DNA of 64,000 bases from Polyangiaceae bacterium (GCA_046351325.1 JAXLYR010000002.1:752334-816333), one strand, 5' to 3'. Positions 10,418-37,466 are shown, numbered from the stretch's first letter. Numbers and translations: made by a program. The notes: generated by a model not told the origin, from the letters alone.

Positions 10418-10503
10418 GGGGACCTCCTCCCCGAGAAATAGGCCGCATCGACCCTGCGTGAGAATGCACACTGATGCCCGATGGGTCTGCAATAATCCAC
10501 AGC

Positions 10504-11382
10504 ATGAATTGGGACGATCTCCGCTTCGTGCTCACGCTGGCGCGGCTGGGGTCGCTCGTGCGGGCTGGGAAATCGCTGGGCGTCGACCACACGACGGTGG
10601 GCCGCCGCGTCGACGCCGCCGAGGCCGCGCTCGGCGTTCGGCTCTTCACGAGGACGCCAGCGGGCTACGTGCCCACCGCCGACGCCGAGCACCTGCTCGA
10701 GCCGATGCGCAAGGTCGAGGAGAGCGTGCTCGCGCTCGAGCGCAGGGCTCACCCCGCGCGCGACGCGGTCGAGGGCGCGGTGAGGGTCACGTCGCCGGAG
10801 ACCTTCGGGGCGAGCTATCTTGCGCCGAAGCTCGCGGGGCTGCGGTCGCGGCACCCGGGCCTCTCCATCGAGCTCGATCCTCGCGGCGACGTGCTCGATC
10901 TCGGGCGGCGCGAGGCCGAGGTCGCGGTGCGCTTCTTTCGGTCGAGCGCAGCGGATCTGGTCGTGCGCCGCGCCGGCGAGGTCCGCTACGGGCTCTACGC
11001 TTCGGAGAGCTACCTCGCGGAGCACCCAGTGGTCTCGCAGAAGGACCTCGCGCGGCATGCGCTGCTCGGCGTCCCCGAGGCGGACGCGCCCGAGTCACGC
11101 TGGCTCGCGAGGCTCGCGCCAGGCGCGCGGCTCGCGTTCTCGAGCACGCTGTCGCTGGCCTTGCTCGGGGCCGCGCGCGCAGGCGCTGGGGTCGCTGTCT
11201 TGCCCCGCTACTTGGGCGATCCGGAGCCTGCGCTGCGGCATTTGCCGATGCCGCACGCGCCCGCCGAGCCTATCTGGCTGACGGTGCACCGCGATCTACG
11301 GCGGACGCCGCGCATCCGCGCGGTGCTCGACTATCTGGTCGCGGCGCTCGCGGCCGACGCTGGATTCCTCGAGGGCGGGTGA
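10504..11382 (+). CDS. LysR-family transcriptional regulator
   Basis: MNWDDLRFVLTLARLGSLVRAGKSLGVDHTTVGRRV HTH motif; divergent from the lipoprotein at 9452..10417. Confidence 0.8.
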   Translation: MNWDDLRFVLTLARLGSLVRAGKSLGVDHTTVGRRVDAAEAALGVRLFTRTPAGYVPTADAEHLLEPMRKVEESVLALERRAHPARDAVEGAVRVTSPETFGASYLAPKLAGLRSRHPGLSIELDPRGDVLDLGRREAEVAVRFFRSSAADLVVRRAGEVRYGLYASESYLAEHPVVSQKDLARHALLGVPEADAPESRWLARLAPGARLAFSSTLSLALLGAARAGAGVAVLPRYLGDPEPALRHLPMPHAPAEPIWLTVHRDLRRTPRIRAVLDYLVAALAADAGFLEGG

Positions 11383-11489: not shown

Positions 11490-12539
11490 TCAGGCGCGCT
11501 TCTTCGCGTGCACGAAGTACATCGGGGTGAAGATGCCGAGCTTGCCGGCGCGCACGAGGGCGTCGGCGCCGTCGTTGAGGAACGAGCTCACCAGGCGCGT
11601 CCCCTTCGGCGCGAGGCCCACGCGCTCCATCAGGCCGGTCGCGGCGTTGGTGACCGTGCGGCCGATCGGGGTGCGGGGCAGGGCGCGCAGCGAGAAGCCC
11701 GAGCTGTATGCGGACTCGACGTCGAGGTCGGCGTGCCACGGGATGCCGGGGAGCGAGCCGTCCGCGAGATCGCGCGCGGCGACGACGTCGAAGCCGACCT
11801 CGCGGAGGGCGCTGGTCACGTCGTCGAAGGTCGCGAGATCCGCGATGCCGTTGCCGCGCTCGATGAGGAGCTTGAGGCGGCGGTGCTCGGGGTCGTTCTT
11901 GTCGTACTTCGGGGTCATGCACCACTCGTAGAACGCGAAGCCGCCGCCCGGCTTGAGGACGCGCGCGGCCTCACCGTAGATGCTCTGTTTGGTGGGCGCG
12001 TGGCAGGTCGCTTCGATCGCGTAGGCCGCGTCGAACGTCGCGTTCGGCACGGGGATGTTGAGGAAGTCCGCCTGCAGGATGGTGCACTGTCCCTCGAGGC
12101 CCTGCTTCGCGTTGTACTTGCGGCCCTTCTCGACTTGGTAGCCGCTGATGTTGACGCCCGTCACGCGCGCGCCGGTCGTCTTGGCGATGTGGCGCATCGG
12201 GCCGCCGACGCCGCAGCCGAGATCGACCGCGTGCATGCCGCGGCAAAGGCCGAGGTGATCAGCGAGGTAGCTCTCGTGGCGTGCGAGCGCGAGATCGAAG
12301 CGCTCGCCCGGGCGCCGCGACGCGAAGTGGAAGGCCTTGCCCCAGCCGAACTCGTAGAAGTCGGTTACAAGATCGTAATACTGGGTGGTGATGGTGGCGT
12401 AGCGGTCGGCGACCGATTCCCCCTCCGCGCGGTCGAAGTGCGCGACGTAGGCCTGCGCGGTGGACTCGACCTGGTCGCGAGAGAGCCCGGGGCGGGACTG
12501 ACCGGGAGCGGCTAGTTTGGATTCGGCGTGCGTGACCAT
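11490..12539 (-). CDS. Sterol 24-C-methyltransferase (ERG6/SMT1-like SAM-dependent methyltransferase)
   Basis: Near-collinear match to eukaryotic ERG6 signature blocks: YDLVTDFYEFGWG (SMT region I), VDLGCGVGGP (SAM motif I), YAIEATCHAP, VLKPGGGFAFYEW, DKNDPEHRR, DLADGSLPGIPW, LGLAPKG, IFTPMYFV. Confidence 0.8.
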   Translation of the reverse strand: MVTHAESKLAAPGQSRPGLSRDQVESTAQAYVAHFDRAEGESVADRYATITTQYYDLVTDFYEFGWGKAFHFASRRPGERFDLALARHESYLADHLGLCRGMHAVDLGCGVGGPMRHIAKTTGARVTGVNISGYQVEKGRKYNAKQGLEGQCTILQADFLNIPVPNATFDAAYAIEATCHAPTKQSIYGEAARVLKPGGGFAFYEWCMTPKYDKNDPEHRRLKLLIERGNGIADLATFDDVTSALREVGFDVVAARDLADGSLPGIPWHADLDVESAYSSGFSLRALPRTPIGRTVTNAATGLMERVGLAPKGTRLVSSFLNDGADALVRAGKLGIFTPMYFVHAKKRA

Positions 12540-14879: not shown

Positions 14880-17378
14880 CTATCCGCGCTTCGCGGACCC
14901 GAGGCGCGGGAACACGACTGTCCCGCCCTCTTCCAGTGAAAGCTCGATCGAGCCGTCTTGGCGGAGGGCGCCTGCGAGCTCCGTTCGGTCATCCAGCTTG
15001 AGGAGAAATGGCTCCCCTGCGAGCGGGCGGCCGTCTTGATCGGTCAGTTCGATACGGGTCGGATCAGGCGGGGACTTGAGCTCGTCTTTGGCGCGGCTCG
15101 GGGAGTTGAGGAGGATCTGTTTGCCGTCGATCTTCACGTCCTTGCTCATCGCCACCGAGGCCTCGTCGGTCTTCACCGTGAGGCTCTTGGCGACGAGGGC
15201 GACGGCGTCCGAGGCGCAGAGCTTCAAGCCGTCGCTCGAAGTCTCGACCCGGGCCTCCTCACCCGAGAGGCTGACGGCGCTCGCGACCAGGTCGATGCGG
15301 TCCTTGGTGATCCGCACGAAGCTCGACCCCACGCCGAGGACGATCTCTCGATCGGAGCGGAGCTCGAGGCGCTCGGTCGCGAAGCTGGTCCGCGTGCCCT
15401 CCACGTGGAGCGCGCTGGCTGCGCTCTTGTCTGCGGTCCCGATGACCTGCGTGTGGTGTCCAGCCACGGTCTCGTGGAGCGTTTGCTTGAAGGTGTGCGC
15501 GGCGGGCCCAGCGATCGTCAATTGCTCAGCACCAGCGACCTCGAGCGCCCGGGTCGTGCGCACTACCTCCAACGAGGTCCCCGCGACGATCCGCCGGGCG
15601 CCCGTGACCGCGACGTCCTGATCGGAATCGATCTTCAGCGATTGTCCCCCCTCCAAGCGTGCCGATTCCACACCGACGACGTGGCGTACGGACTCGCCGC
15701 GGACCTCGAGCCGGAGAGCGTTCTCGACCCGCGTCTCGTGATCGTGCTCTGCGACGAGCTTGAGGTCGCGACTGGCGTGTAGATAGAGCTGCTCTTTACC
15801 CTGCTGGTCTTCGAAGGAGAGCTCGTTCGCGCCTGTGCCGCGCGTGGAGCGAGAGCGAAGCCCGCTGCGCGCACCGACGCCGACGTCGAACGGCATCGTG
15901 TGCGTGCCATTGAAGACGCAGCCGAGCACGATGGGTTTGTCCGGGTCGCCGTCCTCGAAGGCGACCACAACCTCCATCCCGGCCCGCGGAATGAACTGCA
16001 TTCCCCAATGAGCGCCCGCCCAGGGTTGCATGGTCCGAACCCAGCACGAGCTGCGATCGCCACCCGGGGCACGGTCCCAGTTGAAGTGGATCTTGATGCG
16101 GCCGAGCGCGTCCGCGTGGAGCTCGTCCAGCACGGGGCCGACGACGGTAGCTGTGAGCGTGGCGCTCACGACACGCCGAGGCCCGCGCTCTGGCAGGGTC
16201 AACGTCGAGGCTGGCGCACACTCGAAGCGACACTCCAGCCTGCGATCCTCGAGCGCATCGCTGCCTTTGTATCTTGCAGTTACGACGACGTACTCGCCAT
16301 TGTCGGCGTCGCGCGGGTGGTCGACGAGCTCGAATCGATACCCCGGCGAGAGCGCCCCGCTCGAAGTGGTGGCCGTCGCAGTGCTCGCCCGTCGACGAGC
16401 GCGCGCGAGCAGTCGCGCGGGTTCGTCTTTGACGTCGTCCCACTCGGGGTCGAGAAAGGCTCCGCCATGCTCGTAGAGCTCGAGGTCGAGCTCAGGGGCG
16501 CCGGGGAGTGCGGACTCGTCGCGACTGACAGCTGCGCTCGCGGAAGATGGAAAGAGGGGACGTTCGGGATCGTATTCACGATAGACCGCACGCGCCGCGC
16601 GCACCCGACGGCTCGCGCGAAAGCACTCAACGATGTTTCGGTCGCCACCGACGCCAGTTGAACCTTCGCGATAGTGCAGCGTCGGGACAGAAGCTCCTCC
16701 ACCCGAGGTGCCATTGGAGTCCGCGGCCGATGGATATGCAGCGGCGTTGTCCGCGAAGACTATGACCTCGCGGGCGCGAACCACGGACTCGAGACCAGCA
16801 TCGTTTGGGTCTCTCAGCCACGCGAGGACGGCGGCGGGCTGCTGGAAGAAGTGGAAGACGCCAGCCTCGGCGGCGAGCCGCTCGACGAACTCGAGGTCGC
16901 TCTCCTGATACTGGGTGATCATTGGCTTCGACGGGAAATTCCGCGTGAGCGCCCAGCGAAGGTCGATGTGGGGCGACAACACCTCTTCTATGACGGCAGG
17001 GACGGTCATGTCCTGAAACACGCGAGAACGGCGCGTGTGCTCGAGGAGGGCCATCGCGGGGACGAGTCGGTAGCGCTCATCCATCCGCGCGCCACCCTCA
17101 CGCGAGCCCTCAGCGCGCACCGCCGAGACCACGCCGTGAACGACACGCGGCCTATTGTCGACGGAGATTACCAGCGAGGCTCGGGCTCCGAGGACCAAAG
17201 AAGTGTCGACCGCGGCCTCGACAGACGCGAGGACGTCGAACGAGTAACACTTGGACAGAGCCTCGCGCCCGCGGAGTCGGTGCACGCGAAAGGACGTGGC
17301 GGAGAAACCTGCCACGAACAAGGAGAACGGAGCACTCAGTCCTTCAGTCATCGCGCCATCCACGGGGCTACGGGTCAA
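14880..17378 (-). CDS. vgrG: Type VI secretion system spike protein VgrG (copy 1), with ~130-aa C-terminal extension
   Basis: Canonical VgrG blocks: FSLFVAGFSATSFRVHRLRGREALSKCYSFDV, ITQYQESDLEFVERLAAEAGVFHFF, RIKIHFNWDR…SSCWVRTMQPWAGAHWGMQFIPRAGMEVVVAFEDGDPDKPIVLGCVFNG. Followed by a gp5-like beta-helix and extra C-terminal tail. ATGA overlap with the upstream gene. Confidence 0.9.
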   Translation of the reverse strand: MTRSPVDGAMTEGLSAPFSLFVAGFSATSFRVHRLRGREALSKCYSFDVLASVEAAVDTSLVLGARASLVISVDNRPRVVHGVVSAVRAEGSREGGARMDERYRLVPAMALLEHTRRSRVFQDMTVPAVIEEVLSPHIDLRWALTRNFPSKPMITQYQESDLEFVERLAAEAGVFHFFQQPAAVLAWLRDPNDAGLESVVRAREVIVFADNAAAYPSAADSNGTSGGGASVPTLHYREGSTGVGGDRNIVECFRASRRVRAARAVYREYDPERPLFPSSASAAVSRDESALPGAPELDLELYEHGGAFLDPEWDDVKDEPARLLARARRRASTATATTSSGALSPGYRFELVDHPRDADNGEYVVVTARYKGSDALEDRRLECRFECAPASTLTLPERGPRRVVSATLTATVVGPVLDELHADALGRIKIHFNWDRAPGGDRSSCWVRTMQPWAGAHWGMQFIPRAGMEVVVAFEDGDPDKPIVLGCVFNGTHTMPFDVGVGARSGLRSRSTRGTGANELSFEDQQGKEQLYLHASRDLKLVAEHDHETRVENALRLEVRGESVRHVVGVESARLEGGQSLKIDSDQDVAVTGARRIVAGTSLEVVRTTRALEVAGAEQLTIAGPAAHTFKQTLHETVAGHHTQVIGTADKSAASALHVEGTRTSFATERLELRSDREIVLGVGSSFVRITKDRIDLVASAVSLSGEEARVETSSDGLKLCASDAVALVAKSLTVKTDEASVAMSKDVKIDGKQILLNSPSRAKDELKSPPDPTRIELTDQDGRPLAGEPFLLKLDDRTELAGALRQDGSIELSLEEGGTVVFPRLGSAKRG

Positions 17379-18046
17379 TCGGGCTGACCGCTCGCATCCA
17401 CGAGCGCGTCTCGAGTGGCTTGGTCGAGCTCACCTTCAGGTAGGCCGGCGGCGCGCTGAAAGGCCTTCACCGCACGGGGGACGTCAGCCTCTTCGATCGG
17501 TCCACCCGACGTGAGATATCCCAGGTTCTCGAGCCGTTTCGCGACGCCCGCGACGGTGGTGGATGGGTCCACGTCACCGACGACCAATTGGTACTTGCGC
17601 TCGAAGTTGACGACGTCGAGCAGGATGGTCTTTGTCGTGATTGGACACTCCAGGGTCACGCGGACAATCTTCTGCGAAGGGCTCGCGCTCTCCCCGACTT
17701 CTTCCTTGGTCACCCGCGCGCCGCTAGCAGGGTCGACTGTGCATCCTGGTGTTTCGGGGGCGAGCTCACAGCCGGTGAAGCGCAGCTCGAGTTCGAGCCT
17801 CTGAAGCGGGACGGTCGCCTGATATTGATTGGTCGACTGCTTGCGGAGCGACGCGCCGCTGAGCTTACTTATTGGAAGGTAAATGACGTCGCCCGGAGAC
17901 AGGACGTCAGGCGACGCCCGCAGCGCGCGCAGCTTGTCGTTGGACGCGTGATTCCACACCTCGTCCACTGTCGCGCCGCGCTCGAACGCCAAGGCCTGCA
18001 AGTGGTCCCCGCGCCGAATGATGTACGGTCGATAGTCCTCAGCCAT
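17375..18046 (-). CDS. LysM domain plus C-terminal peptidoglycan-binding (PG_binding_1-like) domain protein
   Basis: N-terminal LysM (YIIRRGDHLQALAFERGATVDEVWNHASNDKL…PGDVIYLP). C-terminal LENLGYLTSGGPIEEADVPRAVKAFQRAAGLPEGELDQATRDAL resembles a PG-binding helical bundle. Translationally coupled to vgrG1. Confidence 0.7.
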   Translation of the reverse strand: MAEDYRPYIIRRGDHLQALAFERGATVDEVWNHASNDKLRALRASPDVLSPGDVIYLPISKLSGASLRKQSTNQYQATVPLQRLELELRFTGCELAPETPGCTVDPASGARVTKEEVGESASPSQKIVRVTLECPITTKTILLDVVNFERKYQLVVGDVDPSTTVAGVAKRLENLGYLTSGGPIEEADVPRAVKAFQRAAGLPEGELDQATRDALVDASGQPD

Positions 18047-25135: not shown

Positions 25136-26521
25136 GTGATGGCGCTCCCTCCCAGCCCCAAGCTCTCGCGTGCCGAGACGACCCTGCGTTGGTTCCGTGA
25201 GCCGTACGCGTTCCTCGACGAGTGCCGCGCTCGGCACGGAGAGGTCTTCTCGTTTCGGCTGCTCGGGGCGCCGCCTTTTGTCGTGTTCTCCCACCCGGAT
25301 CACGTGCGGCAGATCTTCTCGGACGACGGCTCGACGATGGCGGCGGGCGCGTTCAACCGCACGCTCGCGCCGCTGCTCGGAGACCGGAGCGTGCTCATGG
25401 CGGACGGTCGCGAGCACGTGCGGAAGCGCAAGCTGCTCCTGCCGCCGTTTCATGGCGAGCGCATGCACTCGTACGGGAGCGCCATGCTGGAGATCGCGGA
25501 CCGCGCGATCGAACGCCTACCGCGCGAGCGACCGTTCGCGATCCACCCGGTCATGCAGGACGTCACGCTCGAGGTCATCGTGCGGACCGTCTTCGGCATC
25601 CAAGCGGGGCCTCGCGCCGACGAGATGATGCGACGAACGAAGCGGATCCTCGAGCTCGGCGCGTGGGCGCCGCTGCTCCTGCCGTTCCTGCAGTTCGAGC
25701 TCTTCGGGCTCGCGCCGTACGGGCGCTTCAAGGCCGCCGTCGCGGCGGGCGATGCGGTGCTCTACGAGGAAATTCGCAGGCGCCGCGAGACCGGTGAGCG
25801 CGGCGAGGACATCCTGTCGCTGCTGCTCGACGCGAGGGACGATGCGGGCGCGATGCTCGAGCCGCCCGAGCTGCGCGACGAGCTCGTGACGCTGCTCGTC
25901 GCAGGGCACGAGACGACGGCGACCGCGCTCACGTGGGCGCTCCGGTGGCTGCTCGACCAGCCCGGTACTTACGCGGATGTACGCAACGCGGTGGACGCGC
26001 TCGGCGCCGACCCTTCGCCCGAAGACATCGCCAAATGCGAGCTCCTCGACGCAGCCGCGCGCGAGGCTCTGCGGCTCGTTCCGGTGATCCCGCTCGTCGG
26101 CCGCGTGCTCCTCGCGCCCGCGAGCGTCGGCGGTTACGACCTCGAGGCAGGCACGGTCGTCGTGTGCTCGATCTACCTCGCGCATCGGCGGCCCGAGGCC
26201 TTCCCGAACCCGACGCTCTTCGATCCGAGCCGATTCGTCGGGCGGAAGTTCTCGGCGTACGAGTTCTTCCCGTTCGGTGGGGGCATGCGCCGCTGCATCG
26301 GCATGGCGTTCGCGCTCTACGAGATGAAGCTCGTGCTCGCGAAGCTCCTCGCGCGGACCGAGCTGCGGCTCGCGGGGCCGAAGCGAGAGATCCGCATGGT
26401 GCGCCGCTCGATCACCATCACGCCCGAGGACGGCCTGCTCGTCACGATGCGCGAGCGTGCGCTCCGCTCGGCTGTGCGCGGGGCGGGGGAGACGGGCACG
26501 AGCCGCGAGGCTCGCGCTTGA
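25136..26521 (+). CDS. Cytochrome P450 monooxygenase
   Basis: Heme-binding loop FGGGMRRCIGMAFA (FxxGxRxCxG), ETLR/EALR K-helix motif, AGHETT I-helix; ~460 aa. Confidence 0.85.
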   Translation: MMALPPSPKLSRAETTLRWFREPYAFLDECRARHGEVFSFRLLGAPPFVVFSHPDHVRQIFSDDGSTMAAGAFNRTLAPLLGDRSVLMADGREHVRKRKLLLPPFHGERMHSYGSAMLEIADRAIERLPRERPFAIHPVMQDVTLEVIVRTVFGIQAGPRADEMMRRTKRILELGAWAPLLLPFLQFELFGLAPYGRFKAAVAAGDAVLYEEIRRRRETGERGEDILSLLLDARDDAGAMLEPPELRDELVTLLVAGHETTATALTWALRWLLDQPGTYADVRNAVDALGADPSPEDIAKCELLDAAAREALRLVPVIPLVGRVLLAPASVGGYDLEAGTVVVCSIYLAHRRPEAFPNPTLFDPSRFVGRKFSAYEFFPFGGGMRRCIGMAFALYEMKLVLAKLLARTELRLAGPKREIRMVRRSITITPEDGLLVTMRERALRSAVRGAGETGTSREARA

Positions 26522-27606
26522 ACCGACGAGCCTCGCCTGGGATCGGGCTCGTGGTTCTCGTGATCGCGGCGGGCTGCAAGGGCGAGCCGAAGAAGGGTGC
26601 GAACGCATCGAACACGCCGGACCGCCAGCTCGACAGCTATCTCGGCGAGCTCTCCGCGTGCCCGCTCGCGAGCGGCGGACTGCGGGTCGACTCCGCATGC
26701 CCGGAGGCCGTGCACCTCGTCGATTTCGGCAACGCAAACCGCGCCTGGATCGACGGCAACCCGCTCAAGATCGCCAAGATCGGCGAGAAGCACCTCGACT
26801 CTCCGTCGGTCTCGGTGCGCGTCGAGGCCGTGAGTTGGATCGGGCGCACGGTCGCCGCGAACGAGCGCTCTCGCACGGTCCTCGTCGAGCTCGCGAAGAC
26901 CGAGAAAGACGCGGCGGTGCTCACAGCCATCGCGCGCGCAGCGGGCCGCGCTCGCGTCGCCATGGCGCCCCTGCTCGAGACGCTCGCGCGTGGCTCCGAA
27001 CCGAAGGTGCGACGCGAGGCGATCTCGTCGTGGGTCGACCCGAGCGCCTCACCCGAGGCGGAGCTGCGCGGCCCGATCGCCGCCTTCGTCGCGGACAGCA
27101 CAGCGCCGCTCGATGCTCGCCGGCGCGCTTGCGAGCGAATCCGCGTGGGTGAAGACGCGGCGCTGCTCGAAGCCGTGAGCGGGCTGCTCGACGCCGACGC
27201 GACCCCGCGAGAGCTCTTCGCGAGCTGCTTTTACGGGCTCACGCTCTCGTTCGCAGGCGGCGTCAAACCACCGAGCGAGGGTTCGTATAACAAGGTTATA
27301 GGATGTCTCGAGAGCTGCCCGCGCTCGGGGCGCTACGACACCTCGCTCGGGCTGGTCGTCCTCGACGCGATTTTCACCGGCAAGCCCGACGCGGCGCCGC
27401 CGTCCTTCGTGGACCGAGCGCGCGTCGAGCGCGCGGCCGTCGCGATCGCGAAGGACGCGGCGGCGACGGCGGACCTCCGCGCCGCGGCGCTCGGTGTGCT
27501 CGGCGATCCCATGACCGCCACGGCGAAGACGGGCCTCTCGCTCTCCGAGATCCAAGCGATCACCGCGAGCGCCGCTGCGTCACCCCAGCCTTCGAACCCG
27601 GAGTGA
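26519..27606 (+). CDS. Alpha-helical (HEAT/ARM-like) lipoprotein, unknown function
   Basis: Frame switch relative to the long ORF-track entry; probable TTG start overlapping the P450 stop; signal plus lipobox LVVLVIAAGCKGEPKK; helical repeat character. Confidence 0.45.
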
Positions 27607-27644
27607 GGGGCAAGCCTCGCGCGCGAGCGGTATCATGCTCGGTC

Positions 27645-28778
27645 ATGAAGAAGCTTGCTTGCGGGTTCGGCGCCCTCCTCCTCGGCTCGGCACTGGGCGT
27701 CGGTTGTGGTGATGACGCGGGCCCGGGAGGGAGCGGTGGAAGCGGAGCCACCGGCGCCTCGGGTGGAGCGGGCGGCGCGGGTGGTGAGGCTCAAGGCGGC
27801 GGCGGTGGCGACCTAGGCGGCGGCGGCGCAGGTGGTGGAGGCGTCCAGCCGATCGAGGCCACGCCGGACACCTGGGTTTGGGTCCCGATCGAAGGCACGA
27901 CTTGCGGCAACGGCTCGACCGCGGGCGTCGGGGTGAACCTGCACGAGGGGAGCAACATCCTCATCGTCGCGATGTCCGGCGGCGGCGCGTGTTGGGACGA
28001 CACCATGTGCAACGGGACGACGCCGACGAGCGTGCACCTGCACGAGACGCTGACCGAGGCCATCGTCGCGCCCGAGTTTCCCCTCGTCGATCGCACCGAC
28101 CCCTCGAATCCCTTCTCGGCGGCGTCGTGGGTCTACGTCCCGTATTGCACGGGCGATCTTCACTGGGGGACCAAGATCACGAGCTACACGAACGGTGAAA
28201 TCCACCACACCGGGGCGACCAACATGCAGACGATCCTCGCGCGCGTCGCTGCGACGCGGCCTGGGACGACGACGACCTACCTCCTCGGTGGGAGCGCAGG
28301 CGGCTACGGCGTCAGCCTGCATTGGGGCACGACGAAGCAGGCCTTCCCCGGGAGCGCGGTGCACATCCTGGCCGACGCGTCGCCGCTCGTCATGCCGCAC
28401 GGGTCTCGCTGGGCGACGATGCTCACGGCCTGGGCCCCCGCCTTCCCCGAGGCGTGCACGAACTGCGAGGCCGAGCCCGGCGCCCTCCTCGACACCCTGG
28501 CGACGGCCTACCCCACGTCGCGGTACGCGCTGCTTTCCTATGACGAGGATGAAGTCATCTCCCAGTACTTCGGCTTCACCGGCGATCTCGGCAGCACGCT
28601 CGACGCGATGACGGCCGCGCACTTCGATCCCCACCCGAACACCAAGTACTTCATCGCGCCCGGCACCGAGCACGGCGTCCTCGGTGACCCGGTCATCGCG
28701 CCCGACGGCACCTCGGTGACCGACTTCTTCTTCGCGTGGCTCATCGGCGCCCCGACGTGGAAGAGCGAGCGCTTCTGA
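27645..28778 (+). CDS. Pectin-acetylesterase/NOTUM-family-like hydrolase lipoprotein
   Basis: MKKLACGFGALLLGSALGVGCGDD lipobox plus Gly-rich linker; family-like blocks IVAMSGGGACWDDTMC, YVPYCTGDLHWG, YLLGGSAGGYGV. Confidence 0.5.
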   Translation: MKKLACGFGALLLGSALGVGCGDDAGPGGSGGSGATGASGGAGGAGGEAQGGGGGDLGGGGAGGGGVQPIEATPDTWVWVPIEGTTCGNGSTAGVGVNLHEGSNILIVAMSGGGACWDDTMCNGTTPTSVHLHETLTEAIVAPEFPLVDRTDPSNPFSAASWVYVPYCTGDLHWGTKITSYTNGEIHHTGATNMQTILARVAATRPGTTTTYLLGGSAGGYGVSLHWGTTKQAFPGSAVHILADASPLVMPHGSRWATMLTAWAPAFPEACTNCEAEPGALLDTLATAYPTSRYALLSYDEDEVISQYFGFTGDLGSTLDAMTAAHFDPHPNTKYFIAPGTEHGVLGDPVIAPDGTSVTDFFFAWLIGAPTWKSERF

Positions 28779-28788
28779 ACGCCTCGCT

Positions 28789-28848
28789 GATACAGCCCCC
28801 GCTGATACAGGGGTGATACAGGGCGCGCTGATACAGGGCTGATACAGG
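28789..28848. promoter_or_regulatory. Array of five direct repeats TGATACAG(G) with alternating 15/11-bp spacing, ~80 bp upstream of vgrG2
   Basis: Directly read: copies begin at 28789, 28804, 28815, 28830, 28841. Confidence 0.6.
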
Positions 28849-28927
28849 CGAACCGACGCCGTGCGCGCAGAACAGCGCTCGTGGAGCATCGCGCTCGACG
28901 GCACGCGCGCTGCACTGGTGGGTCGCC

Positions 28928-30415
28928 ATGTCGCAACCCACGAGACCCATGCTGCCCCTCGAGCGGAAGGGCACACCCGCTCGGGTGGACCTCTCCTCTC
29001 CGGACTTCGACTTCCAACACTTCTTCGTGCGCAAGCTCGTCGCGCGCGAGGGCGTCTCGGAGCTCTACCGCTGCACGCTGCACCTCGCCTTGCCGACCTC
29101 CGCGAACGCCGACGTCACCGTCGCGAGCGCGATCGGCGCGGCGGTCCGCATCGAGCTCGTCGACCAAGGCGGAACGCCGGTGGGCGTGCTTCACGGCATC
29201 GTCGACGGCGCGAGCATCACCGGCGGCGAGGAGAGCCACGGCCTCGAGGCCTGGGAGATCACGGTCGCTCCGCGCGCTGCGCGCCTCGCGCTCGTGACGA
29301 CGCAGGAGATCTTCATGCAGAAGTCGGTGCCGGCGATCATCGCGGCGAAGCTGGAGGAGGCGGGGCTCGGCTCGAGCTTCGCGATGCGCCTCAGCGGGAC
29401 GTACCCGGAGCGCGAGTTCGTCGTCCAATATCGGGAGACCGATCTCGACTTCATCTGCCGGCTCGCGGAGCACGTCGGCATCTCGTTCTCCTTCGAGCAA
29501 GGCGAGGACGAGGAGATCATGGTCTTCACCGACGACACGAAGGCTCTCGCGCCGGAGCTCAGCGAGCGCGTCGTGTATTCGCCGCGGCGCGATGTCCTCG
29601 GGGTCTTCGAGCTCACGCGACAAGCTCGCATCATCCCGACGGTCTACGCGGTCCAGGACTACAACTATCGAAACCCGAACCTCGACGTCGGGGCGATCGT
29701 CGAGAGCGCGCTCGGCTCGGGTGGCGGCGTCGTCGAATACGGCGCGCACCAGAAGGACCCGGACGAGGGCAGGTGGCTCGCGAAGGTGCGCGCCGAAGAG
29801 GCCGAAGGGCGCGCGTGTTCTTACGCTGGTGTAAGCGTCGTCGGGGGCCTGAGCGCGGGCGTCCACTTCGCGCTCGAGTCAGCGCCGCCCTGGGCGGACG
29901 CCTCGCTCTTCGTCGTCCGCGTCGAGCACGAGCTGTCGACCCCGCTCGGTGGTGATGCCTCGGAGGCCGCGCGGTACGTGAACCGCTTCACGGCGATCTC
30001 GTCGAACACCCGCTTCCGACCGGCGCGCTCGACACCTCGCCCTCGCATCCACGGGGTGGTGAGCGCGGTCGTGCAGGGCTCGGGCGGCTCGAGCTACGAG
30101 GCCAACCTCGATCCGCAAGGCCGCTACCTCGTGCAGTTCCACTTCGACACCGCGGAGCCCGGGCTGCCGCAGCCGTCGAGGCCGGTTCGTATGTCGCAGC
30201 CCTTCGCAGGGCCGAACCAAGGCATGCACTTTCCGCTGCGGCCCGGGACGGAGGTGCTCGTCGTCTTCATCGACGGCGATCCCGATCGACCCATCATCGT
30301 CGGCGCGGTGCCGAACACGGTGACCCCGAGCGTCGTCACCGCCGTGGAGTCGCAGCGCCACCGCATCCAGTCTCACCACGGCCTGCTCGTGCAGTTTGGC
30401 AAATCGCTTGCTTAG
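28928..30415 (+). CDS. vgrG: Type VI secretion spike protein VgrG (copy 2), short form lacking most of the C-terminal beta-helix
   Basis: VgrG N-terminal/gp27-gp44 blocks: FQHFFVRKLVAREGVSELYRCTLHLALP, VVQYRETDLDFICRLAEHVGISFSF, VQFHFDT…QPFAGPNQGMHFPLRPGTEVLVVFIDGDPDRPIIVGAVPN; ends 495 aa. Confidence 0.85.
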   Translation: MSQPTRPMLPLERKGTPARVDLSSPDFDFQHFFVRKLVAREGVSELYRCTLHLALPTSANADVTVASAIGAAVRIELVDQGGTPVGVLHGIVDGASITGGEESHGLEAWEITVAPRAARLALVTTQEIFMQKSVPAIIAAKLEEAGLGSSFAMRLSGTYPEREFVVQYRETDLDFICRLAEHVGISFSFEQGEDEEIMVFTDDTKALAPELSERVVYSPRRDVLGVFELTRQARIIPTVYAVQDYNYRNPNLDVGAIVESALGSGGGVVEYGAHQKDPDEGRWLAKVRAEEAEGRACSYAGVSVVGGLSAGVHFALESAPPWADASLFVVRVEHELSTPLGGDASEAARYVNRFTAISSNTRFRPARSTPRPRIHGVVSAVVQGSGGSSYEANLDPQGRYLVQFHFDTAEPGLPQPSRPVRMSQPFAGPNQGMHFPLRPGTEVLVVFIDGDPDRPIIVGAVPNTVTPSVVTAVESQRHRIQSHHGLLVQFGKSLA

Positions 30416-30429
30416 TCAGGAGAAGACCA

Positions 30430-32012
30430 TGAGTGACACCCAAGGAACGACGAGCAGCAGCAACGGCAGCAACGGATCGACGGCGTCTCAGCCCGTATCG
30501 GAGACGGTCCCCGAGCATTTCCGCATCCTCGTGCCGAACCCCGAGACCGAGCTCCAGCTCGGGCAGGGCGACGCGGTCTCGGGTGGCGCGGCCTTCGTCG
30601 GCATCGCCGGCCGCGTGAAGAAGGGCGGTGTTCTCTTCGCCGCCGGAGGTTTCCCGGGTGGGCTCCAGGCCGAGGACGGGAGCTTCGAGCAGTTTCGCAA
30701 GGCGCACACGACGATCTCCGTTGCGGTCAGCGGCATCGCCGCGGCCTCGCTGCTCTTCAGGTCCGCTTATCAACGCAAGGAAATCTGCCTCTTCGATCTC
30801 GTCGTGAACGGCCTCCTCGGCTTCGCCGCGCCGGCAGGCATCGGCGTCGCTTTCGGGGCGATGGATAACGGGATGTCGAGCGCGGACGGCAGCATCGCGC
30901 TCTACGGCGACAAGAACGTCGCGATCGCGACCCCGATGACCTTCGGCGCTACCGCCGGCCTCGCCGCCTCGATCAACGGTGGGATCGTCGCGTCGCTCAA
31001 CGCGACCGGCGCGGCCTCGGTCAACGCGGTCGTGGCGAGCGTCAACGGCGTGTGGAAGGCGAACGTCGGCGCGATCGAGACGAACATCATCGCCGACAGC
31101 AAGCTCACGCTGGCCTCTCGTCGCGGCGGCGCACTCGTCGCTGGCGAGACGATCCAGATCGGCCAAGCCACGGCGAAGATGCCGCTGCTCGATCGATTCC
31201 TGAGCGGCGGGCAGTACGGGACCAAGCGGGTCGACCTGCGCGCCGACGAGGTCATCCACATGGAGCCGGGCGACGAGAAGACCAAGATCGCGGGCGCGCC
31301 GACCAAGCTCCACCTCGACAAGAAGACGGTCCGCGCCGAGACGACGGGCAGCGCGCTGACGCTCGACGCGAGCGGCACGTGGCACGCCGGCAACTCGATC
31401 ATGAAGCTGAGCTCCGACAAGCTGTCGCTCTGCTTCGGTGCGGTCGCACCGAAGGAGGCCTCCGACGCGATCATCAAACCGGCAGAGGTCGCGTGGAAGG
31501 AGGCGCAGGACGCCGCCGAAGAGATCGAGGAGACCGTCGACAAGGTCGGGTTCGCGAAGGCCGGTCTGCTGCTCGGGACGGTCGCTGGCGGCATTTCGAC
31601 CGCGATCGTTGGAGCTCAAAGCATGAGCGACGATCAGAAGTCGATGATCGATCTCGCGGCTCTCGGCGCCGGCATGGCGCTCGGGCCCCTCGCCGGGTTC
31701 GGTGTCGCGAAGGCCGTCGAAAAGGTCCTCACGAGCAAGGCGCAGGCAGCGGCCCGCAAGGCCGCGGACAAAGCCCTCACGGCGGCGGTGAAGGGAGGCC
31801 TCAAGGCGGAGCAGGCCGCTGTCAAAGCGCAGGGCAAGCTCCCGACGAACCCGGCGATCGAGCTCGCCTCGAGCGGCGTCACGCTGCGAGTCGGCAAGTC
31901 GAAGATCACGATCTCCGCGACGGAGATCTCGATCGAGACCGCGCCGGGACTCGAGGTGAAAATCAACGGCAGCACGTTCTCCGCCACTGGCGTCAGCCTT
32001 GCAGGGACCTGA
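30430..32012 (+). CDS. Uncharacterised 527-aa Gly/Ala-rich protein with hydrophobic segments and beta-helix-like repeats; candidate VgrG-associated cargo or split spike C-terminus
   Basis: RBS aggagaag before the ATG at 30430; hydrophobic stretches (TISVAVSGIAAASLLF, LVVNGLLGFAAPAGIGVAFGAM); periodic segments reminiscent of a VgrG beta-helix; Lys/Ala-rich helical C-terminus. Confidence 0.5.
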
Positions 32013-34563
32013 GGAACAACCCATGGCGCCCGTGATCTCCAACTCGACCAACCTCAAGCTCGGCTTCTTTTGGTGTCAGCTCGACCCCCCGACCCACGGC
32101 GTGACCTTCGTCGTGAAGGGCACGTACGATCTCGTGCACGGCGCCGCGGCGCGTGCGGTCGACGCTGAAAACGCGCTCTCGCTCGCGGGAGACGAGAGCT
32201 ACGAGGACGGCGGCAAGGCCTGTCGCTACCCGTCCGACTTCGCGCCGAAGAAGGCCCGCGCCGACGTGATGGTCGTCGGCGCCGCGACCTCGCCCGAGCC
32301 GGTGAAACGCATGGAGATCGCGCTCAAGCTCGGGGCGCTCGACAAGCGCCTGCTCGTCGTCGGCGATCGCGTGGCGGAGCATCACTCGGGCAAATGGATC
32401 GCGAGCGAGCCTAAGCCCTTCACGCGAATGCCGCTCCGCTACGAGCGCGCGCTCGGCGGACCGAGTTTCCTCAAGAACCCGATCGGCTGTGGCGTGCGTC
32501 CCACCGAGGGGGAGAGCACCTGTCCGATGCCCAACCTCGAGCTCCCGGGCAGGGTGAGCTCGACGGAGCCGGCAGGCCTCGGGCCGCTCGATCGCCGATG
32601 GGCCGACCGCATGTCGAAGGTCGGGACCTACGACGCGACCTGGAGAAAAGAGCGGTGGCCGTGGTTCCCGAAGGACTTCGACTTCGCGTATTTCAACGCG
32701 GCTCCGCTCGACCAGCAGATCGAGCTCGTGCGCGGTGACGAGGCGATTCGGCTCGAGGGCTTGCGCGGCGCCGCGTTCGAGTCGCGGCTCCCGGGCGTTC
32801 GACCGCGGCTCTTCGTGAGGCGGCCCACGGGTGACGCCGAGGTCGCGCTCGCGATCGACACCGTCTGGATCGACGCGGACGCGGCTCGCCTCGTCCTCGT
32901 GTGGCGCGGTCACATCAACGTCGAATCGAAGCGCTTCGAAGAGATCTCGAGCGTCGTCCTCGCGAGCGAGGAGCTCGCGTCGCCGCTCCGGCCTGCGAGC
33001 GAACACCTCGCGGCTGCCGTGCGTCGCGAGCCGACCGAAGAGGAGCTCGCCGATCGCGAGGAGGCGGAGGCGCGCGCCGACTCGGAGAGCGACGAGGCGC
33101 CCGCGAACCCCGAGAACGACGAGGAGGCCGCTGTTCGCGAGGCGAAGGAGCTCCTCGTGAAGGGCGGCGCACCCGCAGAGCTCCTCGCGAAGCTCGAGAA
33201 CGTCCGCACGACGGACGCGATGCTCGAGGTGCTCCAGCGCGAGGGCCCGAGCGCCGAAGGCGCGAGTGAGGCCGATATCGCAGCGGCGCACGCCCACGCG
33301 CGACAGGTGATGCTCGCGAACGGCGTGGACCCTTCGGCGCTCGAAGATCTCACCGAAGAGGCGCCCGCGACCGAGCCCGAGCCGAGCGCGACGCTGCGTC
33401 TCGATCGAGAGGACGTCCTCGCGCGACGCGCTGCGGGCGAGGATTTGGACGGCTTCGATCTCAGCGGCGCCGATCTCTCGGGGTTGGACCTCGCGCGCGT
33501 CAGCATGCGAAAGACCCGCCTCGTCGGCGCGCGCCTCGACGGCGCGCTGCTCGCTGGCGCGATCCTCACGGGCGCCGACCTCGAGGGCGCCCACGCGACA
33601 GCGGGCCCCGTGATCTTCGCGGGCGCCGATCTCACGGAGGCGAAGCTCGCTCGCGTCGTGTTTCCGGGCGCGGTGTTCGAGAGCGCCGACCTCACGCGCG
33701 CCTCGATGAAGGGCGCGCGGTTGGCACGCGCGTCGCTTTCTCTGGCCGTCATGGAAGACGCTGACTTGTCGGAAGCCGACCTCTCACACGCCGATCTCTC
33801 GGGCGCGAACCTCGCTCGGCCTCGCTCGACGCGAGCCGCTGCTCGCGTCGAACCTCACCGAGGCCGACCTCACGGACGCGAAGCTCGGTCGGCGTCACCG
33901 CGGGCGCGGAGCTCACGCAGACCTCGCTCGTCGGCGCGACGCGCTCCGCGGCGCGCAGCTCGACAAGGCGCGGGCCGCGGGCGCGAAGTTCGCGAGCGCC
34001 GATCCCCTCGGGTGCGTCGCTCGACGACGTCGTCCTCGACGGGGCCGACCTCACGAGCGCGAAGCTCGGGGCGCGCGCGGCGCCCGCGCCCGCTCCGCGA
34101 GGCCGTCCTCGAGAAGGCTGCCGGCGCCGAGCTCGATCTCGCGGGCGCCGATCTCAGCGGCTGCGCGCTGCCGGCGCGATGCTCGCGGGCGCTCGCTCTG
34201 AACGCGTCGCGCGCCCGAGAGCGCCTGGTCGGGCGCCGATCTCGCGGGCGCTCGCTTCGACGGCGCGGAGCTCGAGCGCGCCGACTTCACCGAGAGCGCG
34301 CTCGAGCGCGCCTCCTTCGACCACGCACCACGAAGCACGCGGTCCTCGTGCGCGCTCGCCTCGCCGGTGCGCGCCTGACGAAGGTCAACCTGCTCCGCCT
34401 CTACCTCGAGGCGCGCGGACCCGCGAACGCCGATTGTAGGAGCTCAAACTTCTTCGAGAGCGAGTTCCTCGACGCTGTTCTTCACGGGCGCGCTCTTCGA
34501 TCGCTCGAACTCCTCGGCCGCATTCAAGCTCGACAAGCGGAGCGCCTCGTGAAAACGCCGTGA
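31999..34563 (+). CDS. DUF2169-domain protein fused to pentapeptide repeats; 3-prime third disrupted by multiple frameshifts
   Basis: N-terminal DUF2169-like region (NSTNLKLGFFWCQLDPPTHGVTFVVKGTYDL). Clean pentapeptide repeats from ~33420 to ~33820 (ADLSGLDLARVSMRKTRLVGARLDGALLAGAILTGADLEGA…); beyond that repeats continue only across shifted frames. Confidence 0.7.
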   Translation: MQGPEEQPMAPVISNSTNLKLGFFWCQLDPPTHGVTFVVKGTYDLVHGAAARAVDAENALSLAGDESYEDGGKACRYPSDFAPKKARADVMVVGAATSPEPVKRMEIALKLGALDKRLLVVGDRVAEHHSGKWIASEPKPFTRMPLRYERALGGPSFLKNPIGCGVRPTEGESTCPMPNLELPGRVSSTEPAGLGPLDRRWADRMSKVGTYDATWRKERWPWFPKDFDFAYFNAAPLDQQIELVRGDEAIRLEGLRGAAFESRLPGVRPRLFVRRPTGDAEVALAIDTVWIDADAARLVLVWRGHINVESKRFEEISSVVLASEELASPLRPASEHLAAAVRREPTEEELADREEAEARADSESDEAPANPENDEEAAVREAKELLVKGGAPAELLAKLENVRTTDAMLEVLQREGPSAEGASEADIAAAHAHARQVMLANGVDPSALEDLTEEAPATEPEPSATLRLDREDVLARRAAGEDLDGFDLSGADLSGLDLARVSMRKTRLVGARLDGALLAGAILTGADLEGAHATAGPVIFAGADLTEAKLARVVFPGAVFESADLTRASMKGARLARASLSLAVMEDADLSEADLSHADLSGANLARPRSTRAAARVEPHRGRPHGREARSASPRARSSRRPRSSARRAPRRAARQGAGRGREVRERRSPRVRRSTTSSSTGPTSRARSSGRARRPRPLREAVLEKAAGAELDLAGADLSGCALPARCSRALALNASRARERLVGRRSRGRSLRRRGARARRLHRERARARLLRPRTTKHAVLVRARLAGARLTKVNLLRLYLEARGPANADCRSSNFFESEFLDAVLHGRALRSLELLGRIQARQAERLVKTP

Positions 34564-34726: not shown

Positions 34727-36622
34727 GTGAGCTGCGAACTCACCGGCGCGAAGCTCGCGGGCGCGGATCTCCATGGCGTGCGCGTCGCGGCGCGCGAGGT
34801 GGTCGGGGCCTCTCCGGCCGACGCGAGCGCCGACGCTGGCGAAGACGAGCTCTCGAAGCTGCTCGCGTCCCAAGGCGTGGGCGGCCTCAAGCCCACCATC
34901 GCGGCGATGCGGAGCGTCGACCTCCGCGGCGCGAACCTCACGGGCGCGATCATCGCTGGCGCCTGCATCGACGGCGCTTGGTTCGACGACGCGAACCTCA
35001 CCGGCGCGCTCCTCACCGAGTGCTCGCTCGAGCGAGCGTCCCTGCGCGGCGCCGATCTCTCGAGCGCGACCATCGAAGAGAGCTCGCTCGCGAACGCGGA
35101 TCTCTCGGGCGCGAAGCTCCCGCGCGCGGTGCTCGTGAGCGTGAACCTCACCGGCGCCTCGCTCGCCGGGGCGCACCTGTCGAACGCGTTGCTCACGGGC
35201 CTCGCGCTCGAGGGCGCCGTCTTCGAGGGCGCGACCGTCGAGCACTGCACGCTCACGAACGTCACGCCGGCCGACGTCGCGCTCACCGGCGCGACCCTCG
35301 TCAACGTCTCGATGCCCGGCATGAACCTGCGAGGCGCGCGGCTCATGCCCGATCAGCGCGGCGCCGATCTCTCGGGCTGCGATCTTCGCGGGCTCGATCT
35401 GTCAGGGTTTTTGCTCGCGGACGCGAACCTCGCCGGCGCCGACCTCTCCGGCGCGCGCCTCGTCAGGGCCGACCTCTCGAGCGCCGATCTCTCGGGCGCG
35501 AACCTCAAACACGTCGACCTCTCGCGCGCCGCCGCGTCGAGCGCGTCGTTCAAGGCCGCGAACCTCGAGCGCGCCCGCCTCGCCGGGGCCACGCTCGACG
35601 ACGCCGATCTCGAAGGCGCGAACCTCTCGCGCGCCGCGCTCGACGGCGCGACGCTGCAAGGCGCGAAGTTCGGCGGCGCCGATCTCAGCCTCGCGAGCCT
35701 CTCCGAGTGCACGCTCGAGGACGTCGATCTCTCGGGTGCGTCGCTCGTCGGCGCGAACCTGCGCGGCGCGAAGCTCCTCGGCGCGACCGTGCAGAGCGCC
35801 ACGTTCGCCCGCGCGATCCTCACGGGCGCGACGCTCGAGTCGATCGATCTCTCCGAGAGCTCGCTCGAGGAGGCGCATCTCGAGCGGACGACCTGGTCCT
35901 CGTGTGATCTCAGCCGCGCGAACCTCACCGCGGTGAACCTGCGCGGCGCTCGAGCGAAGGGCACGCGCTTCGCGGGCGCGACGCTCCACCGCGCCGACCT
36001 CGTCGGCGCTGACCTCGTCGGCGCGGTGCTCGACGGCGCCGACCTGTCCGGCGCGCACCTCTCCGGCGTGTCGATCACCAGGTCTTCGCTCCGCGGCGTC
36101 GATCTCCGCGGCCTCTCTCTCGACGGCGCGTGCCTCACCGACGACGACCTCGCGAGCGCCGATCTCAGCGGCGCGAGCCTCTCGGGGGCGCGCCTCGATC
36201 GCTCGGATTTCACGGGCGCGCGCCTCGCGAAGGCGCGGCTCACGCAGGCCATCTTGGTCGCCGCGACCTTCACCGAGGCCGAGCTCGACGGCGCCGACCT
36301 CTCCGAGGTCGACGCGACGGACGCCTGCTTCGAGGCCGCCTCGCTCGTTGGCTCGAAGCTCACGCGAGCCCGCCTCGACAACGCGCGGCTCGAGCGCGCC
36401 CGCGCCCCGCACGTGAACCTCTCCGGAGTGCACGCGCGCTACGCAGACTTCTCCCACGCCGACCTCGACAGCGCCGAGCTCCGCGGCGCGGACCTGACCG
36501 GCGCGAACCTGCACGCGACGCAGCTCGGCGGCGCGCACCTTGCAAACGCAAAGGTCGACGGTCTTCGCGAGACCGACCCCGAGCTCCTCGCTGCGGAGCG
36601 CTGGGTCGCGCCGCGCGATTGA
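34727..36622 (+). CDS. Pentapeptide-repeat protein (A(D/N)LxG repeats throughout)
   Basis: Hundreds of residues of ADLSGANL/ANLTGA-type repeats; likely begins further upstream (~34560) across frameshifts. Confidence 0.8.
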   Translation: MSCELTGAKLAGADLHGVRVAAREVVGASPADASADAGEDELSKLLASQGVGGLKPTIAAMRSVDLRGANLTGAIIAGACIDGAWFDDANLTGALLTECSLERASLRGADLSSATIEESSLANADLSGAKLPRAVLVSVNLTGASLAGAHLSNALLTGLALEGAVFEGATVEHCTLTNVTPADVALTGATLVNVSMPGMNLRGARLMPDQRGADLSGCDLRGLDLSGFLLADANLAGADLSGARLVRADLSSADLSGANLKHVDLSRAAASSASFKAANLERARLAGATLDDADLEGANLSRAALDGATLQGAKFGGADLSLASLSECTLEDVDLSGASLVGANLRGAKLLGATVQSATFARAILTGATLESIDLSESSLEEAHLERTTWSSCDLSRANLTAVNLRGARAKGTRFAGATLHRADLVGADLVGAVLDGADLSGAHLSGVSITRSSLRGVDLRGLSLDGACLTDDDLASADLSGASLSGARLDRSDFTGARLAKARLTQAILVAATFTEAELDGADLSEVDATDACFEAASLVGSKLTRARLDNARLERARAPHVNLSGVHARYADFSHADLDSAELRGADLTGANLHATQLGGAHLANAKVDGLRETDPELLAAERWVAPRD

Positions 36623-36656
36623 GCCCCACCCCAACCCCACGGAGAGAACGAACCCG

Positions 36657-37466
36657 ATGATCCAGGCCTCGAGCATTTCGTCGCACGCACCCATGACCTC
36701 GAGCGGAGCCGCGGTGGCGCCGCAGCCGACGGGCGCGTGGGTGAGGCAAGGGCGCGTCGTCGCCTCGGCCGCGCCCGGCACCGTCTGCGTCGCGATCAGG
36801 CGCGAGAGCGGCGAGCCCGATGCTGTCCTCGCGCAGCTCTCGAGCGCAGCGATGGACGCGCAGGCCGGTGACGAGGTCGTGGTGCTCGGCGAGGGCGAGT
36901 CCGCGTTCGTGATGAGCGTCCTCGGCGCCGCGCGTGGGCCGAGCGCGCGCGCCGTCGTCGCGCGGTCGGGCGCGAGCGCTTCACTCGACGAGCACGCGGG
37001 CCGCGAGCGGCTCGTCGTGCGCGATCGCGACGACAAGGTCCTCTTCGAGGTCGACGCCGAGACGGGTCGCACGGTCATCAGCGCCGCGCGCGGCAACCTC
37101 GCGCTGCGCGCGCCCGACGGCGATCTCGAGCTCGAGGCGAAGGGCGCGGTGCGCGTCCGCTCGCAGGCCTTCGACGTGAGCGCCGAGAAGGCCGAGCTCG
37201 CCCTCGACGACGTCGCGTTCGCGGGCGAGCGCCTCCGCGCGAAGATCGGTGACGTCCGCAACGTCTTCGGGCGCCTCGAGACCGTCACCCAGCGCCTCTT
37301 CGAGACGGCGAAGAGCGCCTTCCGCAATGTCGAGGACCTCAGCCAGCTGCGCGCCGGCCGCGTCCGCACCCTCGTCAAGAAGGGCTACTACGTGCGAGGT
37401 GGCCACGCCGCGGTCGAGGCCGAAGAGGACGTGAAGCTCGACGCCAAGCAGATAAGGCTCGGCTGA
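36657..37466 (+). CDS. DUF3540-like protein (conserved in vgrG-DUF2169-pentapeptide islands)
   Basis: Position and size (269 aa) match the DUF3540 slot between pentapeptide and DUF4150 genes; motif pattern …ALRAPDGDLELEAKGAVRVRSQ…; RBS ggagag before the ATG. Confidence 0.55.
   Translation: MIQASSISSHAPMTSSGAAVAPQPTGAWVRQGRVVASAAPGTVCVAIRRESGEPDAVLAQLSSAAMDAQAGDEVVVLGEGESAFVMSVLGAARGPSARAVVARSGASASLDEHAGRERLVVRDRDDKVLFEVDAETGRTVISAARGNLALRAPDGDLELEAKGAVRVRSQAFDVSAEKAELALDDVAFAGERLRAKIGDVRNVFGRLETVTQRLFETAKSAFRNVEDLSQLRAGRVRTLVKKGYYVRGGHAAVEAEEDVKLDAKQIRLG

Follow-up and report, generated by a model that had tools for sequence, protein, structure and literature searches.

A candidate enhancer array of 9-bp sites, paired with a sigma-54-like promoter element, upstream of a VgrG operon in a Polyangiaceae bacterium

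The stretch of DNA analyzed here (the window, 64 kb in length) comes from a Polyangiaceae MAG and has a local GC content of ~64 to 75%. The feature of interest lies in the intergenic region between a pectinacetylesterase-like gene and vgrG2, the first gene of a proposed operon (Table 1). An earlier note on this DNA had put this gap at ~150 bp, and it measured 149 bp. The NCBI model of the window VgrG (P0001, 488 aa) begins at an in-frame ATG at 28949 and not at 28928. The vgrG2 gene overlaps the gene for the 538-aa protein by 20 nt (30396 to 30415), and the latter overlaps the DUF2169 gene by 14 nt (31999 to 32012), an arrangement that suggests translational coupling. Farther downstream, the DUF3540 open reading frame as listed overlaps the preceding gene by 83 nt, and its true start may be later. 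The 538-aa protein lacks a Pfam match, as do its homologues in all related loci.

The intergenic region (28779 to 28927) begins ACGCCTCG-CTGATACAG-CCCCCG-CTGATACAG-GG-GTGATACAG-GGCGCG-CTGATACAG-GG-CTGATACAG-GCGAACC. Five direct repeats had been claimed to lie upstream of vgrG2, and we found five exact copies of the core TGATACAG on the plus strand, at 28788-28795, 28803-28810, 28814-28821, 28829-28836, and 28840-28847; the start coordinates previously given for them (28789, 28804, 28815, 28830, and 28841) were each one base too high. A repeat finder gave the 11-mer GCTGATACAGG as the full repeat unit, present in five copies with start-to-start spacings of 15, 11, 15, and 11 bp, and Tandem Repeats Finder described the array as 2.5 copies of a 26-bp unit with an 84% match. 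The apparent recognition word is the quasi-palindromic 9-mer CTGATACAG, a near-palindrome of the form CTG-ATA-CAG that is used in both orientations across lineages. The spacers of the window array differ (CCCC versus GCGC), whereas the cores are invariant; none of the four positions at which the two 26-bp units differ lies within an 8-bp core (p = 0.014). On its upstream side, the array begins 8 nt past the stop codon of the pectinacetylesterase-like gene, and on its downstream side, 80 nt separate it from the ATG of VgrG.

Table 1. Positions in the window of the repeat array, the promoter-like element, and the genes on either side
Feature	Position	Strand	Remarks
Pectinacetylesterase-like gene	27303-28778		PF03283; upstream neighbor of the array
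Five GCTGATACAGG units, proposed upstream activating (enhancer) sites	28786-28848	+	Repeat and motif shared with L153/L154 and L157
9-mer sites	28787-28795, 28802-28810, 28813-28821 (GTGATACAG), 28828-28836, 28839-28847	+	
First same-orientation 11-bp-spaced pair (sites 2 and 3)	28802-28821	+	Candidate dimer site
Second same-orientation 11-bp-spaced pair (sites 4 and 5)	28828-28847	+	
-24/-12-like element cGGCACGcgcgCTGCA	28899-28914	+	GG at 28900-28901, GC at 28912-28913; predicted start at ~28925
vgrG2	28928-30415	+	Phage_GPD and Phage_base_V (PF05954 and PF04717); first gene of the proposed operon
Gene for a 538-aa protein without a Pfam match	30396-32012	+	Second operon gene; conserved in all related loci
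DUF2169 and pentapeptide-repeat protein gene	31999-34563	+	Conserved third operon gene
Pentapeptide-repeat protein gene	34727-36622	+	Probably a downstream operon member
DUF3540 protein gene	36540-37466	+	Probably a downstream operon member

The density of the motif was examined over the 64-kb window and ~85 kb of related loci. The window contained no further copy of TGATACAG on either strand (0.25 expected), and none of 100 shuffles reached five. Copies with one or two mismatches occurred elsewhere in the window at the chance rate (18 found versus 21.6 expected). CRISPR arrays consist of ~23- to 50-nt repeats separated by unique spacers of similar length and usually lie near cas genes. The array is not of this kind, as had already been recognized, having a unit of 11 nt, spacers of 0 to 4 nt, and no cas genes in its annotated neighborhood.

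The window holds a longer VgrG gene, vgrG1 (14880-17378, minus strand), 11.4 kb upstream of vgrG2; its product has 832 aa and a Gp5 C-terminal trimerization domain. It is directly preceded by an open reading frame on the same strand (17375-18046), the translation of which looks by eye like a LysM or peptidoglycan-binding protein. Tried as a second target, vgrG1 had no CTGATACAG sites, and it sits inside an operon without a comparable intergenic region. Since vgrG1 lacks such sites, the two spikes are probably regulated differently.

How readily a cluster of this kind arises was judged by searching 185,579 genomes for TGATACAG cores in groups of three, spaced 11 to 15 bp apart. The scan returned at least 120 loci with at least 129 arrays, against an estimate of ~0.1 hit from random sequence. 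A random-sequence null is thus misleading for tandem arrays and badly underestimates the number of matches. Among the matches listed, all were uniform-period tandem repeats with unrelated flanks, in which the spacers were repeated along with the core, and none had a VgrG nearby; their periods were mostly 12 or 15, and they often coded for D-T-rich repeats. Since tandem arrays of any 8-mer are common, clustering alone is weak evidence of function, and it is from conservation across lineages, not from clustering alone, that we argue for a likely function here. A metagenome scan for the 11-bp dimer CTGATACAGGNNTGATACAGG found only two-copy duplications or generic repeats, four high-GC matches among its results not being T6SS related, and a scan of viral contigs for a looser form of the dimer found only generic duplications.

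The TGATACAG tandem repeats came from many phyla and one archaeon, the matches listed including a Methanosarcina array (L046) with 13 copies at a 14-bp period. Many of the listed arrays had a period of 12 or 6 and were of the GATAC(A/T)G type; they would encode Asp-Thr-rich repeats.

The closest relatives of the window VgrG in the protein database were ~48% identical to it, and we retrieved the surrounding DNA for eight. All related loci kept the start of the operon, with VgrG followed by a protein of ~500 to 530 aa without a Pfam match, and the DUF2169/pentapeptide gene came third wherever the contig was long enough and Pfam hits were on record. The upstream neighbors were mutually unrelated, being the esterase gene in the window and an 82-aa and a 255-aa open reading frame in the loci L153 and L157, respectively. 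L153, seen in two samples (L153/L154), encodes a VgrG 47% identical to that of the window and has five sites in its 294-bp upstream region: CTGTATCAG at 3097 and GTGTATCAG at 3108, both reverse complements of the motif, and CTGATACAG at 3117, 3135, and 3159. Its 8.7 kb contained six matches with at most one mismatch (0.77 expected; 0/200 shuffles), five of them in the upstream region. L157 encodes a VgrG with 45% identity; here, a weight matrix derived solely from the window and L153 found four degenerate sites of at least 13 bits within 48 bp upstream of VgrG (CGGATACAG, CTGAGACAG, and CTGATACAC twice); the background of this matrix at that score was one match in ~240 kb.

Outside the motif copies and the promoter element described below, the upstream regions of the window and L153 barely align. 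Because the clusters are kept in other lineages while the surrounding DNA is not, the 9-mer appears to be under selection as a word. The strict 15/11 phasing and 26-bp super-period described in the earlier note were present in the window but did not hold as a conserved property, the spacings being 11, 9, 18, and 24 in L153 and 13, 23, and 11 in L157. Since site order, orientation, and spacing all differ between lineages, the 15/11 alternation is lineage specific and most likely reflects a recent 26-bp duplication. The sole spacing common to the three lineages is the same-orientation 11-bp pair (3097/3108 in L153 and 3888/3899 in L157). The module as a whole is patchy, occurring in three of nine lineages, the window included; a prediction that it would track the window's VgrG clade failed for P0018.

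Two further arrangements were seen in the related loci. In L153, sites 2 and 3 abut to form a perfect 16-bp palindrome, TGTATCAGCTGATACA (3109-3124), and the window has no such palindrome. L157 has one more site close to the consensus, CTGATACCG, at 3697-3705 of its minus strand (13.6 bits); it is ~155 bp upstream of the main cluster and ~50 nt inside the 5' end of the divergent 255-aa gene, and it may be a distal site or one that serves that gene.

Between the array and vgrG2 lies a -24/-12-like element, cGGCACGcgcgCTGCA, which has two mismatches to TGGCACG-N4-TTGCA with the GG and the GC in place, a match by consensus only. The window as a whole contained seven matches to the sigma-54 consensus with at most two mismatches, versus 3.7 expected, a number not significant alone. 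The core GGCACG-N5-TGCW had a single occurrence in the 64 kb, placed 14 nt ahead of the ATG, with 0.43 expected over the 128 kb of both strands. Equivalent GG-N10-GC elements were found in L153 (CGGCGCGCCCCTTGCT) and L157 (CGGCCTGGCTCTTGCG, with four mismatches to the consensus), ending 15 and 13 nt before the ATG, respectively, as against 13 nt in the window. The empirical background in such DNA was 0.001 per 30 nt at up to two mismatches and 0.033 at up to four. The six motif-less lineages (L121, L122, L152, L155/156, L158-160, and L161-163) had no sigma-54-like element, their best matches having at least five mismatches; the upstream regions taken included L122 2306-2493, L152 3876-4000, L155 1-204, L158 2135-2233, and L161 4660-5000. 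The element was thus present in 3/3 motif-bearing and 0/6 motif-less lineages (Fisher p = 0.012), a co-occurrence that would be hard to explain if the sites and the element were unconnected.

The geometry of the module was similar in the three lineages. With the predicted start set ~12 nt past the GC, the site centers in the window lay at -134, -119, -108, -93, and -82, and those in the two relatives lay at -83 to -145 and -95 to -142. Distances from site center to GG matched between lineages within 1 to 2 bp (57/58, 68/70, 83/82/81, and 109/109). Within the stretch from the element to the ATG (28915-28927 in the window, 3236-3250 in L153, and 3988-4000 in L157), the predicted start would leave a leader of only 3 to 5 nt with no Shine-Dalgarno sequence. 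This would make the mRNAs nearly leaderless, unless translation begins at a later codon, as in the NCBI model of the window VgrG. A search of 28300-29300 for a sigma-70-like promoter was negative.

Several of the motif-less operons had a TTGAC(A/C) -35-like hexamer ~30 to 75 nt before the start and no sigma-54-like element. Between lineages, this operon thus seems to have been switched from one class of promoter to another. Just before the ATG, L153 and L157 have GTCCTCC in common, and the window has GGTCGCC at that place.

That the five sites are protein-binding cis-regulatory sites for the vgrG2 operon is, in our judgment, very probable. The earlier note had suggested an array of sites for a dedicated factor, possibly an enhancer-binding protein (EBP), and this gained ground from the clusters of this 9-mer in front of the counterpart operon in two independent lineages and from the co-occurring -24/-12-like element, with the sites 82 to 145 nt upstream of the predicted start. 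The interpretation that we prefer, and consider somewhat more probable than its competitors combined, is that the CTGATACAG sites form an enhancer array for a sigma-54 activator of the EBP class that drives the vgrG2 operon. EBP subunits would assemble on the five sites, probably with one dimer on each of the two 11-bp-spaced pairs, and the fifth site would help to build a higher oligomer. With ~50 bp of DNA looped out, this assembly would reach sigma-54 RNA polymerase at the -24/-12-like element and open the promoter by using ATP. The effect on a promoter of this predicted sigma-54 dependence would be activation and not repression, switching on the spike operon with its products VgrG, the 538-aa protein, the DUF2169/pentapeptide protein, the pentapeptide-repeat protein, and the DUF3540 protein.

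A six-frame search of the 64 kb found no EBP gene, with no GAFTGA, EBP-type Walker A, or ESELFGH signature, and the only regulator gene seen in the window was a LysR gene ~18 kb away. There was no regulator beside the arrays in L153 or L157 either, the neighbors there having no Pfam domain. The activator would thus be encoded outside the 64-kb window, and the orphan spike island would be tied to a regulator elsewhere, as with VasH and Sfa2. Some observations weigh against the EBP model. A leader of 3 to 5 nt without a Shine-Dalgarno sequence would be unusual. The number of sigma-54 matches over the whole window is within chance, and the L157 element departs from the consensus at four positions. 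Many EBPs recognize inverted repeats, and the purely direct array of the window weakens the case, as do the patchiness of the module and the lack of sites at vgrG1.

Other explanations were weighed against the same observations. It is rather unlikely, in our view, that the sites are operators of a factor outside the sigma-54 system (of the OmpR/PhoB or NarL type, a ribbon-helix-helix or small dimeric repressor, or a MerR/CarH-like protein) that activates or represses the vgrG2 operon, the -24/-12-like element then being something else. Same-orientation 11-bp pairs are typical of tandem-binding winged-helix regulators, a 9-bp near-palindrome used in both orientations would suit small symmetric dimers, and both the absence of a nearby EBP gene and a whole-window number of sigma-54 matches within chance fit such a factor. 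However, no sigma-70-like promoter accompanies the array, which, at 80 nt before the ATG, is too far away to overlap a -35 element or to occlude a promoter near the start, and the GG-N10-GC element keeps its position in each of the three lineages that bear the motif and is missing from the six that do not. Much less credible still, and in fact the least probable of all, is a functionless minisatellite produced by slipped-strand duplication of an 11- or 26-bp unit. The 2.5 copies of 26 bp at an 84% match, the abundance of generic TGATACAG repeats in bacteria (at least 120 loci), and the two-copy 11-bp duplications of the same word in unrelated metagenome contigs speak in its favor, but one duplication does not account for 9-mer clusters that precede the same operon in two lineages in another order, orientation, and spacing. 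The invariant cores and differing spacers also set the array apart from the generic arrays, which, among the matches listed, had repeated spacers, a uniform period, and no VgrG nearby. A 26-bp duplication probably did shape the arrangement in the window, acting on functional sites.

The patchy distribution of the module, which does not follow the VgrG tree, the different upstream neighbor in each lineage, and the start of the array 8 nt after the stop of the upstream gene could point to a mobile or recombining cassette, with the repeats serving as transposase or recombinase sites or marking an island boundary. We think this very unlikely, given that neither the 64 kb nor the related loci contained a second, inverted set of sites, that there was no transposase or integrase gene in the annotated neighborhood and no match in plasmid or phage collections, and that the tight positional coupling to the -24/-12-like element indicates a promoter function. 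The array was likewise compared with plasmid iterons and partition sites, and no rep, par, or transposase gene was found nearby, nor a second set of sites. Equally slim are the chances of action at the RNA level, through reiterated CUGAUACAG sites for an RNA-binding protein, by analogy with RsmA, or through a structured leader or 3' untranslated region. In P. aeruginosa, RsmA acts as a repressor of most genes of the T6SS and the vgrG islands (PMC8855297), and the window array, directly after the esterase stop codon, could be cotranscribed with the esterase gene; yet two of the five L153 sites are inverted, which changes the RNA word, and the gene upstream of the array is divergently transcribed in both L153 and L157, so that the array there is not in a 3' untranslated region. 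The intergenic RNA of the window, moreover, folded no better than shuffled sequences (z = -0.18), and no Rfam match at gathering thresholds was found anywhere in the window.

The enhancer array proposed here was then set beside described systems. EBP tandem-repeat sites typically lie 80 to 150 bp upstream of the -24/-12 region (PMC7910581), and the array sites, when measured from the predicted start (82 to 145 nt), fall within or close to this range. Nla28, an EBP of Myxococcus xanthus, binds tandem repeats of an 8-bp quasi-palindromic half-site, CT(C/G)CG(C/G)AG (PMC7910581, PMC9765219). Like the Nla28 sites, those of the window are quasi-palindromes of 8 to 9 bp that start with CT and end with AG, and they stand in tandem upstream of a TGGCACG-N4-TTGC(T/A)-like element in a high-GC myxobacterium. 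They differ in having an AT-rich center, GATAC, instead of a GC-rich one, in numbering five instead of two, and in preceding a T6SS spike operon instead of developmental or natural-product genes.

RpoN binds in front of orphan vgrG islands of P. aeruginosa, and expression of these islands requires Sfa2, an EBP whose gene belongs to the core cluster; VasH plays an Sfa2-like role in V. cholerae (PMC8855297). In the H2-T6SS of P. aeruginosa, the promoters precede homologues of hcp2, and ChIP gave a single clear Sfa2 peak, 2.1 kb away (PMC8855297). Our locus resembles these systems in having, as judged from sequence alone, a -24/-12-type element directly upstream of a vgrG island, with the predicted activator gene elsewhere, and for the Sfa2/VasH systems, too, repeats near the RpoN site have been proposed as targets of the factor (PMC8855297). 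It differs in belonging to the Myxococcota (Polyangiaceae) and not to the Gammaproteobacteria and, from Sfa2, in its compact array of five sites 57 to 109 bp from the GG; CTGATACAG is not reported in PMC8855297.

Enhancers of the NtrC type, such as that of E. coli glnAp2, have several sites ~80 to 150 bp upstream of a sigma-54 promoter that promote AAA+ oligomerization. Each NtrC dimer binds a 17-bp inverted repeat, whereas the unit here is a 9-mer, mostly in the same direction. OmpR/PhoB boxes and CarH operators are tandem 11-bp direct repeats that overlap or abut the -35 element of sigma-70 promoters. Like them, the array has repeats in the same orientation that recur after 11 bp, or one turn of the helix; unlike them, it lies 80 nt from the ATG with no sigma-70-like promoter found, and its orientation varies, two of the L153 sites being inverted.

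Some other regulators have the consensus patterns CTGT...ACAG (LexA), nAnnTnnACAn (CarH), and TGT-N10-ACA (NifA). The LexA half-site was rejected, all window sites having the same orientation without a CTGT-N8-ACAG palindrome; the CarH 11-bp repeat did not fit in register; and the NifA pattern fitted, loosely, only the L153 palindrome and not the window. A literature search for the motif word returned only incidental hits in unrelated, mostly eukaryotic or viral papers, where it apparently formed part of primer or construct sequences; no report of the word serving as a binding site came up.

The kind of regulation that we propose is already known, both from sigma-54/EBP control of T6SS spike islands and from myxobacterial tandem-repeat enhancers, and it represents no new type of mechanism. 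What is new is the word CTGATACAG, its link, in Polyangiaceae-like bacteria, to VgrG/DUF2169 operons, and the patchy way in which it is distributed, much like a cassette. To our knowledge, T6SS regulation in myxobacteria is essentially uncharted. Orphan vgrG islands carry the effector repertoire, and the 9-bp word together with a sigma-54-like promoter offers a searchable handle with which scans of complete Polyangiaceae or Sorangium genomes should reveal a regulon and show which core T6SS, spike, and effector genes it contains. As bait, the sites could serve to identify the activator, the sensory domain of which would lead to the signal that arms the weapon. Lineages that bear the module and lineages that have another promoter before the same operon provide a clean natural example of promoter-class turnover.

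More tentatively, CTGATACAG might be the word of an undescribed Polyangiaceae-like activator and, with its sigma-54 promoter, might constitute a compact, portable cassette of ~140 bp that was swapped in before some VgrG/DUF2169 operons, others of the family having TTGAC(A/C) -35-like hexamers in its place, and that yields nearly leaderless transcripts, a possibility that we place well short of probable. Were it true, spike and effector modules would be wired to different regulators by promoter exchange, and the number of sites would be tuned by 26-bp duplications.

The wider neighborhood has some features of its own. Adjoining the LysR regulator gene (10474-11382, plus strand) is a gene for a SAM-dependent methyltransferase (11490-12539, minus strand), the product of which matches the sterol methyltransferase C-terminal domain (PF08498, E = 2e-21). 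Methyltransferases of the sterol type are uncommon among bacteria, although some myxobacteria are known to have them. In both the window (25136-26521, plus strand) and the motif-less locus L121 (2259-4964, plus strand), the VgrG operon is preceded, at a distance of a few kilobases, by a cytochrome P450 gene; this hints at partial synteny of the wider neighborhood despite the differing promoter regions.
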